Of a stretch of 64,000 nt of DNA, positions 6,130 through 36,967 are shown piece after piece. Numbering within the stretch: the stretch's first letter is position 1; the number at the start of each line of letters is the position of its first letter. The notes under the pieces are model-generated. The model did not search any database. It had not been told where the DNA came from and worked only from the letters and a program-made list of their open reading frames with translations. Origin of the DNA: a virus; IMG/VR virus record IMGVR_UViG_3300036715_001140, positions 82,794-146,793 of that record, one strand, 5' to 3'. The position numbers and the translations under genes are program-made.

Positions 6130-6405
6130 TTAGTGCTTTAATTCTTTTCGTTTTATTGTCCACTTATAAATACCTAAGATATTTATCACCATAAAAATAA
6201 CGTTAGTTAAAACAAAACTAATATCCTTTGTTATAAATCCATATATAAAAAATATTATTGTGGCTATACCAGACAATGGATAGGCTATTTTTAATTGCCC
6301 TTTTAAGTTATAAATAGCTGCAGATAAGATACATCCATTTGCTAATAACGAAATAAAATTTTCTGGTTTACTAAATTCAAACCATTTTTCTAATAACATA
6401 TACAC
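6130..6405 (-). CDS. small 3-TM membrane protein (PnuC/YgjV-like)
   Basis: three hydrophobic segments, INILGIYKW ending. Confidence 0.55.
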   Translation of the reverse strand: MYMLLEKWFEFSKPENFISLLANGCILSAAIYNLKGQLKIAYPLSGIATIIFFIYGFITKDISFVLTNVIFMVINILGIYKWTIKRKELKH

Positions 6406-6408
6406 CTC

Positions 6409-6690
6409 TTATTTAGAAGGTTTTAAAGCCTTCTTTATCTTAGCTTCCAGGTTATATATTTCTTTTCCTGAGAGTTTTATATGTATAGTATCTTTATAGT
6501 TAAGTCTTTCGTTATGTATAAATATTTTTAAACAATTATCATCATTACTAATTTCCATGTCTATAAAAGAATGATTCGGATGAGGTGAAGTCTCTTTACT
6601 ATATACTTCTTGTGAGGATGAAGGAAAATAACTTGGAGGTGAATAAAATAAATCCTGTTCAAATATTGTCAACAACGCTACGAAGGCCAT
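6409..6690 (-). CDS. hypothetical protein
   Basis: ORF track. Confidence 0.45.
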   Translation of the reverse strand: MAFVALLTIFEQDLFYSPPSYFPSSSQEVYSKETSPHPNHSFIDMEISNDDNCLKIFIHNERLNYKDTIHIKLSGKEIYNLEAKIKKALKPSK

Positions 6691-6736
6691 ACTTTATACC
6701 CTCATTTTATTTTTTAATATATTAACAGTTTTAGAC

Positions 6737-6775
6737 AAAAAAGAAGGGTAGCGGTTTTATCCACTACCCTTTTTT
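6737..6775 (-). terminator. intrinsic terminator (likely bidirectional)
   Basis: AAGGGTAGCGG/CCACTACCCTT stem flanked by A and T tracts. Confidence 0.75.
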
Positions 6776-6776
6776 A

Positions 6777-6954
6777 GAACCTTGAATTAGTAATAACTAA
6801 CAGGTTCCAGCTCGTAGCCTTTCTCTGATGTCTTAAGGCGACTTTCCTAAGTTTTAAGACTTGTCAGATACTCACTCTAGCTCTAAGGAGGGCTCTGTTT
6901 GGAACGCATGAAAACAGAGAGATGCAGCACACACTGTACAAAAGAAAGTCGCCT
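6777..6954 (-). ncRNA. candidate structured RNA with predicted pseudoknot
   Basis: GC-enriched non-coding stretch, several stems, 11-nt complement 6944-6954 to hairpin loop 6836-6846; ends at terminator. Confidence 0.5.
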
Positions 6955-8380: not shown

Positions 8381-8456
8381 TGGAGTTGGCGATAGGACTC
8401 GAATCTGCAGTCTACTGATTACAAGTCAACTGCTCTACTAATTAAGCTATACTAGC
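8381..8456 (-). pseudogene. degenerate tRNA-Thr(UGU)
   Basis: cloverleaf remnant with TGT anticodon, TTCGAGT and CCA, but 3 mismatches in acceptor stem and 2 in T stem. Confidence 0.75.
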
Positions 8457-9222: not shown

Positions 9223-9662
9223 TGGTGGAGGTGGAGGGCTCCGACTCCCTCGTCTTGCATATGCATCCATAATCACATCTACGCTAATAGCTTCATTTAA
9301 TTTAAACACTGGAGTAATAGAAGCCTAAACTATCCAGAGTCGATTAAGTTTTATGCTGAAAACTTACAAACAGGTTCCTCTTGTTAGCTACACATAACTT
9401 ACCGAAATGTGATCTTCTGTTACTCAGCGAAGGTTTACTAAGAGTATCTTCCTTTACTGTACCTACGATTCTACTGTAGGAATTTGTTACTTCTAAGCTG
9501 CTGCCAATTGGTCGAAACCATAGTTGTCAGCAGTGAAGAAGCCTTTTACTTTTTCAATTACAGTGTTTGCATTTATTGTTTAGTGGATTATTAATGAGGC
9601 CAACCACAATCCTCATAGCGCAGTAATTACTTTACATACACAATCGAATCCAATTCACCCCC
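9223..9662 (-). ncRNA. ssrA: tmRNA; tag ANTVIEKVKGFFTADNYGFDQLAAA* (9570-9493)
   Basis: 5' GGGGGTGAATTGGATTCGA, 3' CACCTCCACCA, G3.U70 Ala identity, ATAAAT-GCA resume context, tag ends LAAA. Confidence 0.93.
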
Positions 9663-36250: not shown

Positions 36251-36327
36251 TGGTGGGCCTTCAGTGATTTGAACACTGTACCGTCCGGTTATGAGCCGGA
36301 TGCTCTAGCCAATTGAGCTAAAGGCCC
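36251..36327 (-). tRNA. tRNA with CAU anticodon, Ile2-like (otherwise Met)
   Basis: cloverleaf GGGCCTTTAGCTCA...CCGGCT-CAT-AACCGG...ACCA. Confidence 0.9.
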
Positions 36328-36374: not shown

Positions 36375-36713
36375 TGGTGCGGGTGGCGAGACTCGAACTC
36401 GCACAGCCTTTCAGCCGAGGGATTTTAAGCATGTATGTCTGAAAGTTTCCAATCAGCATGGACTATATCTTTACCGCTTAAATTTGATTTAAGTACGGTA
36501 GTGGGCGCTCTAGCCTGTTATTAAGAACACTATAGTTCTCAGGTAGTCTCTGCACCTTCTGTAGTTGTAACTACAGCTTGGCTCAGGGTTAGCATATCTA
36601 CATAATATAGACTTAGCCTTCTCTGAGTTCACCCACAGTTTACTCAACTATTACTAATTGAGGGGGACTAACTTTCTGGTCTTCCCTTGTGTCTGCCATT
36701 CCACCACACCCGC
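36375..36713 (-). tRNA. tRNA-Leu(UAA), intron-containing (exons 36713-36683 and 36429-36375)
   Basis: joined exons give stem AGGGA/TCCCT, loop CT-TAA-AA, long variable arm, CCA. Confidence 0.9.
36430..36682 (-). mobile_element. 253-nt group I intron, ORF-less
   Basis: P GAACTCAGAGAA, Q AACCCTGAGCCAAG, R GTGCAGAGACTA, S AAGATATAGTCC, P3 GTGGGTG/CGCCCAC, terminal G. Confidence 0.92.
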
Positions 36714-36721
36714 ATGAAAAT

Positions 36722-36967
36722 TACGATTTAATCAGATAATTTGAAGTTATCTCTAAATCTGATACCTTGAATAGCGGAGCTAATCCTATAAAACAAATAC
36801 AAGCGAGCCTATTTCACTCTAATCCACAAGGCGTGACAGCTAGTACTAGCTGGTGGAATTGCATTGTACTATTCCAACGAAACACTACATCGAGAGGTCA
36901 TGCTCGGAAAGATTAAGAAATGCCGTTTCATACCTCAAGTGCGGATTTCTACCGCCGGCATATTCTT
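36722..36967 (-). ncRNA. candidate ~245-nt multi-hairpin RNA upstream of tRNA-Leu(UAA)
   Basis: at least five stems including AAGAATATGCCG/CGGCATTTCTT and palindrome CAGCTAGTACTAGCTG; no credible ORF. Confidence 0.5.

Follow-up and report, generated by a model that had tools for sequence, protein, structure and literature searches.

A tRNA-Leu(UAA) gene in a viral genome is interrupted by a group I intron at the boundary between the anticodon stem and loop, i.e., between tRNA positions 31 and 32 (A31/C32). Our favored reading, to which we assign a probability of about 0.7, is that this is a functional phage tRNA gene whose ORF-less, IC3-type intron is spliced after A31, with an A-U pair at the 5′ splice site, and that it belongs to a conserved family with the same property. 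Few recognition elements of group I ribozymes are as conserved, or as thoroughly studied, as the U·G wobble at the 5′ splice site. The intron has the conserved core helices P3-P9, supported by covariation and including an invariant P7 guanosine-binding helix, and a terminal ωG with P9.0 and P10 defining the 3′ site. What it does not have is a U at position −1 in a wobble with the guide; that position is A31, paired with U, in 15 of 15 family members. The source is IMG/VR record IMGVR_UViG_3300036715_001140 (146.8 kb, about 54% complete, 32% GC), and the window, i.e., the whole stretch analyzed, comprises positions 82,794 to 146,793 of that record (64,000 nt).

Plain ARAGORN, with no introns allowed, missed the tRNA-Leu(UAA) at 36713..36375. 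With introns allowed, the program calls a tRNA-Leu(taa) at genome positions c[119168,119506], i.e., window positions 36375..36713 on the minus strand, with an insertion i(32,253). The Rfam model RF00028 matches the minus strand over 36739..36439 with 76.9 bits, above the gathering score of 50. Both programs err in ways that matter here. ARAGORN -i produced many false split tRNAs on 120 loci and is not standalone evidence (among 16 candidate loci that it had split, the Rfam check confirmed L064 alone), while Rfam's own alignment puts P1 and P2 wrongly on the leader and the 5′ exon, the true P1 being formed by GGGA and UCCC (Table 1). Thus, the junction was not set by either program alone, and it rests on comparative evidence.

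Read along the minus strand as exon/intron ... intron/exon ... end, the gene is GCGGGUGUGGUGGAAUGGCAGACACAAGGGA / AGACCAGAAAGUUAGUCCCCCU ... CAGACAUACAUG / CUUAAAAUCCCUCGG ... CACCCGCACCA. The 5′ exon closes with ...ACAAGGGA, its last base being A31 (36683), and contains no U within 15 nt upstream of the junction; the intron closes with ...CAUACAUG, in which ωG is 36430; and the 3′ exon opens with CUUAAAAUCCCU at 36429, which is C32. Because the 5′ exon ends in A and the intron in G, and the intron starts with A and the 3′ exon with C, the inserted unit is unambiguously 36682..36430. When joined, the exons give a perfect cloverleaf with a 7-nt loop in a computed fold (-33.4 kcal/mol), and the CCA end is encoded in the gene. 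A preliminary description of this DNA had named a 253-nt group I intron with a terminal G, an insertion at 31/32 that leaves a 7-nt loop upon joining, and a guide AGUCCC complementary to GGGA/CU with A-U at the 5′ site. All three stand, and they extend to a whole family of introns.

Table 1. Features of the intron-bearing tRNA-Leu(UAA) locus (window coordinates)
Feature	Position	Strand	Basis or description
tRNA-Leu(UAA) 5′ exon, tRNA positions 1-31	36683..36713	-	sequence; ARAGORN -i; D-arm and anticodon stem identical in intron-less phage tRNAs L101, L116
Group I intron, 253 nt, ORF-less, IC3-like	36430..36682	-	RF00028 76.9 bits; first base A36682, ωG 36430
tRNA-Leu(UAA) 3′ exon	36375..36429	-	C32 UUAAAA, anticodon stem 3′ strand UCCCU, long variable arm, T arm, acceptor, CCA
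Internal guide sequence	36664..36670	-	AGUCCC at 36669..36664; spans ligated exons GGGA/CU
P1 lower helix, guide UCCC with exon G28-A31	36667..36664 with 36686..36683	-	family pair counts
P10, guide AG (and weak U36670) with 3′ exon C32 U33	36669..36668 (guide)	-	family pair counts
Upper P1 helix, 36681..36679 with 36672..36670, 6-nt loop	36670..36681	-	MFE fold; covaries (pairs 14-25, 15-24, 16-23)
P2 hairpin	36643..36662	-	7/7 pairs vary on both sides across family
P3 5′ strand (36636..36630) and P4-P5-P6 domain (36627..36555)	36555..36636	-	family model; MFE fold
P7 5′ strand GAGACUA, bulged A, G-binding helix	36544..36550	-	pairs UAGUCC 36465..36460; invariant 15/15
Extra P7.1-like hairpin between P7 and P3′, internal loop UUAAUAA	36514..36543	-	also in Ile2-type L186 and crAss-like phage introns
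P3 3′ strand (36507..36501) and P8 hairpin (36498..36474)	36474..36507	-	family model
P7 3′ strand (36465..36460), P9.0, P9 hairpin (36456..36439)	36431..36465	-	family model
P9.0, AUG with CAU, directly before ωG	36459..36457 with 36433..36431	-	covariation
Neighboring tRNA-Met(CAU), same tRNA cluster	36251..36327	-	tRNA calls

An unconstrained MFE fold of the 339-nt precursor recovers P1, P2, P3, P4-P6, the extra hairpin, P8 and the tRNA arms. In the lower helix of P1, A31 forms a Watson-Crick pair with guide U36667. Between the lower and upper helices lies a 1x2 internal loop, in which A36682 stands opposite A36669 and G36668. The extra hairpin, which has a near-invariant internal loop, (C)UUAAU(A/G)AC, recurs in the crAss-like phage introns and in the Ile2-type L186 as well as in the family, and probably makes a tertiary contact in introns of this lineage. 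The IC3 subgroup is assigned by similarity only, the core aligning with Ile2.5Ug and Leu.3Ug examples; like bacterial tRNA introns of that subgroup, the intron is short, ORF-less and located in the anticodon arm, carries IC3 motifs and draws its P1 from anticodon-arm bases. Elsewhere in the window, the virus encodes a full-length tmRNA (RF00023, 97.6 bits, 9223-9662, minus strand), and a weak extra tRNA match (36.9 bits) is found at 8384-8456, also on the minus strand, where ARAGORN makes no call.

The same insertion site was sought with the pattern CAGAGACTA..GANATAGTCC..G/YTTAAAA, which places no constraint on the 5′ junction. Same-site introns in tRNA-Leu(UAA) were found in seven metagenome contigs (L129, L133, L137, L145, L149, L150, L153), in six betaproteobacterial genomes (Curvibacter microcysteis, C. 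cyanobacteriorum and four Burkholderiales or betaproteobacterial MAGs) and in two further viral contigs (L162, L164); L137 is phage-like too (phrog_3181 match, E 5e-127). The other matches to the pattern are introns of non-tRNA genes. With one duplicate removed, there are 15 distinct sequences, the window copy and 14 others, all of them ORF-less introns of 238-253 nt with A at −1, G at ω and a 3′ exon beginning (C/U)UUAAAA. Since even the nearest relative of the window copy, L164, is merely 75% identical to it, the structure has been maintained over a long divergence. The betaproteobacterial copies form a supported clade in the tree (97/98). Within the Burkholderiales the family is sporadic, as a BLAST search of 401 sampled genomes with the Curvibacter intron returned its own genome and two other intron types only. 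Three other searches brought no relatives: a first, narrow junction pattern gave chance matches only in viral contigs, an exact 3′-exon scan found an unrelated tRNA, and a neighbor-protein search found no related phages. In L153, a free-standing HNH endonuclease gene (6170-6874; phrog_10822, E 1e-35) lies on the opposite strand, directly downstream of the family tRNA-Leu(UAA), and may mobilize the ORF-less intron or the whole tRNA locus.

The 15 sequences (alignment A1) were evaluated against a hand-drawn P1-P10 model of 66 pairs. Standard pairs occupy 96.3% of the cells, versus 35-44% with slid partners; 39 of the 66 pairs vary on both sides, and none of 500 shuffles reaches any of these measures. 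In P1, A31-U and two G-C pairs are present in all members, the fourth pair being C-G in L137 and L164 and G-C in the other 13. This compensatory change fixes the register of P1, because shifted registers mispair in both; those that would set A31 opposite C were rejected on this ground. In P10, the guide G pairs with C32 as G-C in 14 members and as G-U in one (L137), and the guide A pairs with U33 as A-U in 14 of 15. P9.0 covaries as well (AU/UA to GC/GC or AU/AU) and ends immediately before ω, a G in every member, so that the 3′ splice site is also fixed. The anticodon stem is maintained throughout the family.

Other positions for the junction were considered and rejected. That is, with U32 as the −1 base ω would have to be C, or U in L137; with G30 it would have to be U; and all sites preceded by a U lie at least 12 nt into the intron or within the D-loop.

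The expected product of splicing exists in nature. Two intron-less viral tRNA-Leu(UAA) genes, L101 and L116, read AAGGGACTTAAAATCCCTCG, the exact predicted ligation product, and their stretch GGCAGACACAAGGGACTTAAAATCCCTCG equals the window exons joined at A31/C32. Of 31 sampled Comamonadaceae genomes, 20 have a native tRNA-Leu(UAA) gene that reads ...GCGGA CTTAAAA, so that the mature sequence normally has C32 after A31. The draft assemblies of the two Curvibacter species were examined for tRNA matches of class II length (82 nt or longer). Among 47 tRNA matches in C. microcysteis RS43, those of this length are Ser (four), Tyr, and Leu CAG (two), CAA, UAG and GAG, and the split gene is the sole tRNA-Leu(UAA). 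C. cyanobacteriorum HBC61 has the same ten class II matches with identical scores; a pattern search found no intron-less Leu(UAA) there, and the split gene is again the only one. The intron is 244 nt long in these strains. To our knowledge UUA is read by tRNA-Leu(UAA) only, and accurate splicing at A31/C32 is therefore required in Curvibacter. The anticodon stem of the intron-bearing Curvibacter genes (L156/L157) is AGGGA/UCCCU, as in phage tRNAs, and not of the native Comamonadaceae type, GCGGA. Judging by this stem, the whole split gene may have been acquired horizontally, replacing the native one.

In the mechanism that we propose, the guide UCCC would pair with exon bases G28-A31, imitating the 3′ strand of the anticodon stem; P1 would therefore end in a Watson-Crick A31-U pair, and not in U·G. 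Guanosine would attack after A31. The guide AG would then pair with C32 and U33 to form P10, and ωG, held by P9.0, would be exchanged, leading to ligation of the exons and a normal tRNA with the 7-nt loop CUUAAAA. From the sequence comparisons we infer protein-free self-splicing at the A31/C32 phosphate, by a ribozyme that tolerates Watson-Crick pairing at this position. In an alignment that also includes the Leu.3Ug intron L064, the family does not differ from the U·G-using L186 and crAss-like introns in its J3/4, J4/5, J5/4, J6/7 and J8/7 joiners; no family-specific changes relative to canonical relatives were found in J4/5, J5/4, J6/7 or J8/7. On this comparison, the catalytic core does not appear to account for the different splice-site pair.

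Among the alternatives to autonomous splicing after A31, the least improbable, though still an unlikely one, is that splicing at this site needs help to make up for the absent U·G, either from a protein of the host or phage or from the tRNA-like fold of the exons. Such splicing would be slow or conditional, and it could determine when tRNA-Leu(UAA) becomes available in the course of infection. The absence of a compensating core change is consistent with such help, as is the weakening of model ribozymes by Watson-Crick pairs at this site, described in Williams 2020 (bioRxiv 10.1101/2020.01.27.920355). UUA is also the main leucine codon of the phage, with 47% of Leu codons and 41 per 1000 codons in genome ORFs of at least 150 aa, which bears out the heavy usage remarked on in the preliminary description. 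However, the family spans very different hosts and genomes (32% GC phages, Betaproteobacteria), which argues against dependence on a specific partner, and no candidate endonuclease or maturase gene was found adjoining the window's tRNA-Leu(UAA). The further suggestion in that description, that splicing gates translation, is an idea whose whole basis is the high usage of UUA.

How the 5′ site is chosen may be viewed in two ways: either the Watson-Crick pair is tolerated as such, or the internal loop of P1 sets the register. In a tentative version of the second, which we think possible but doubtful, the guide G, which forms the U·G wobble in relatives, faces the first intron base within the internal loop, and cleavage would be displaced upstream by one nucleotide relative to the canonical register. 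It would be the register of the helix and the geometry of the loop, and not a wobble pair at −1, that define the site. The first intron base, which faces the guide A and the invariant guide G (G36668), is U, A or G but never C among the 15 members. It is U in the betaproteobacterial clade, L145 and L162 (9/15), where U·G with the guide G is possible, and A or G in the window copy, L164, L137, L149, L129 and L153 (6/15). In its distance from P2 (it lies 6 nt upstream), the guide G matches the wobble G of the canonical L186. The great importance of U·G in model ribozymes counts against splicing after A31, and so does the U·G pair that can form one nucleotide downstream of the deduced site in nine members; because of this pair, and because of the matching distance to P2, mis-cleavage one base downstream is conceivable.

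Cleavage in the canonical register, in which G36668 serves as the wobble partner and the cut follows whichever nucleotide stands opposite (A36682 in the window copy, a U in the betaproteobacterial copies), would be favored by that U in nine members and by the invariance and spacing of the guide G, and nevertheless we judge it improbable. Its product would carry one extra base, with either the loop enlarged to 8 nt or the stem extended to 6 bp around a 6-nt loop; mixed products are a third option. The anticodon arm would thus be abnormal in every member, though the gene is the sole tRNA-Leu(UAA) in two Curvibacter genomes, and the extra base is absent from the intron-less alleles. In addition, A or G stands opposite the guide G in six members, the window copy included, P10 would begin with a C·A mismatch, and rescue of a 7-nt loop would need ω to be C or U. 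The preliminary description had left the choice between cleavage after A31 and an 8-nt loop open. The ωG with P9.0, the intron-less alleles, the native tRNAs and the sole copies in Curvibacter now favor splicing after A31, and the 8-nt loop is disfavored.

Two further possibilities had been named as dangers to that proposal. One is that the phage copy is dead, in which case the tRNA gene would be a pseudogene. We consider this very improbable: the unusual site would fit it, but 63 of the 66 family consensus pairs are standard in the window copy, only 2 of the 103 columns invariant in its 14 relatives differ, one of these differences restoring the classical GAUAUAGUC motif, and the tRNA exons are perfect with CCA encoded. 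The other, an assembly or sequencing error at the junction bases (36682 and 36430), has nothing in its favor except the rarity of the feature, and is excluded for practical purposes because the same junction recurs in 14 other, independent sequences from three collections.

Splicing after A31 sets the intron apart from known classes. It resembles the classical tRNA-Leu(UAA) intron (Leu.3Ug) in tRNA species, IC3 type, lack of an ORF, the core motifs CAGAGACUA and GAUAUAGUC, and a P1 drawn from the anticodon arm. In contrast, the classical intron is inserted between U34 and A35 (CUU/AAAA) and uses U·G, whereas the window intron lies three nucleotides upstream, after A31, and uses A-U. The closest canonical bacterial relative seen belongs to the Azoarcus-type tRNA-Ile(CAU) class Ile2.5Ug (Burkholderiales L186; 75% identity over 107 nt). 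L186 and the family have in common their core joiners, a P2 capped by a GAAA-type loop and the extra hairpin located between P7 and P3′. In contrast, L186 splices after U36, paired with the guide G (CAU/); its upper and lower P1 helices stack directly, whereas the A31 family has a 1x2 internal loop at the splice site.

Natural exceptions to the U·G rule have been described with C at −1. In 1995, Hur and Waring reportedly found C·G at the 5′ site in two mitochondrial introns of Aspergillus nidulans. The survey of Williams 2020 (bioRxiv 10.1101/2020.01.27.920355) covers 5292 bacterial tRNA introns in 21 classes with loop positions 0-7 tested, and gives U(−1)/ωG in 98.5% of raw calls. In its text, the only exceptional class is Leu.3Cg of Proteobacteria (C(−1)), four leftover calls being treated as errors, and no A(−1) class appears; it also notes that a C-G replacement inactivates the Tetrahymena intron. 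As described there, Leu.3Cg resembles our family in being a natural Watson-Crick replacement of U·G at the 5′ site. It differs in having a pyrimidine at −1 with the guide G retained (C-G), whereas in the A31 family the −1 base is a purine paired with U, and the guide G is displaced by one position. The 21 classes, so far as that text defines them, combine U(−1) or C(−1) with ωG at positions 0-7. In the A31 family, position 0 is the only one at which ω is G, and −1 is then A (any of positions 1-7 would make ω a C, U or A); on that definition the family would therefore fall among the leftovers; its label in the same nomenclature would be 'Leu.0Ag', so far unclassified. No natural group I intron with A(−1), in tRNA genes or elsewhere, came up in our literature search.

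The best sequence match to the window core comes from the crAss-like phage introns cr1_1, cr4_1, cr55_1 and cr118_1, with 83-86% identity over about 90 nt in three of the four and 77% in cr118_1, the P7.1-like hairpin included; identity to the window over 36595..36502 is 85%. Unlike the window intron, they lie in the T-loop of a tmRNA-like gene, are accompanied by an antisense HNH gene, have no P2 and, by eye, have U·G at the 5′ site. The antisense gene is annotated as an HNH endonuclease in cr1_1 and cr55_1, and as a hypothetical protein in cr4_1 and cr118_1. In cr1_1, cr4_1 and cr118_1 (L122:2400-3300, L123:2390-3330, L125:2390-3300), the intron apparently sits in the T-loop of a tmRNA-like acceptor piece (GGACGAGGGTTCGA / intron), and a tmRNA-like 5′ end, GGGGCTG...GGATTTGAC, follows about 70-170 nt downstream; these loci are annotated only as hypothetical or HNH. 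This arrangement suggests a permuted, two-piece tmRNA gene.

According to a 2014 review, all phage introns then known were in protein-coding genes (PMC3984707). Another viral contig, L064 (IMGVR_UViG_3300035659_001474), has at 1253-1567 a canonical tRNA-Leu(UAA) intron after U34 (ARAGORN i(35,230), RF00028 56.2 bits). Phages thus carry tRNA group I introns of more than one class, against that statement. Inserts of 21 to about 690 nt also split other viral tRNA genes, within the anticodon loop or close to it (L050:4120-4895, L083:10140-10426, L088:3781-3887 and L121, sense 800-940). None of L050, L083 and L088, the three that were scanned with Rfam, reaches the RF00028 threshold; these four inserts are candidates for divergent introns, ORF-bearing introns or ARAGORN artifacts.

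Taken together, A-U takes the place of U·G in a natural and diverse family of 15 sequences whose catalytic core is otherwise ordinary; this splice-site pair is conserved across the family, which is common to phages and Betaproteobacteria. At about 240-250 nt, the intron offers ribozyme enzymologists a small system for studying how a cleavage site may be chosen without the wobble pair. The stem-loop boundary at 31/32 is a new insertion site for the catalog of bacterial tRNA introns, and phage-borne tRNA genes, contrary to the 2014 review (PMC3984707), do carry group I introns. For the phage and for Curvibacter alike, the split gene explains why the tRNA for an abundant codon is missed by standard tRNA finders.
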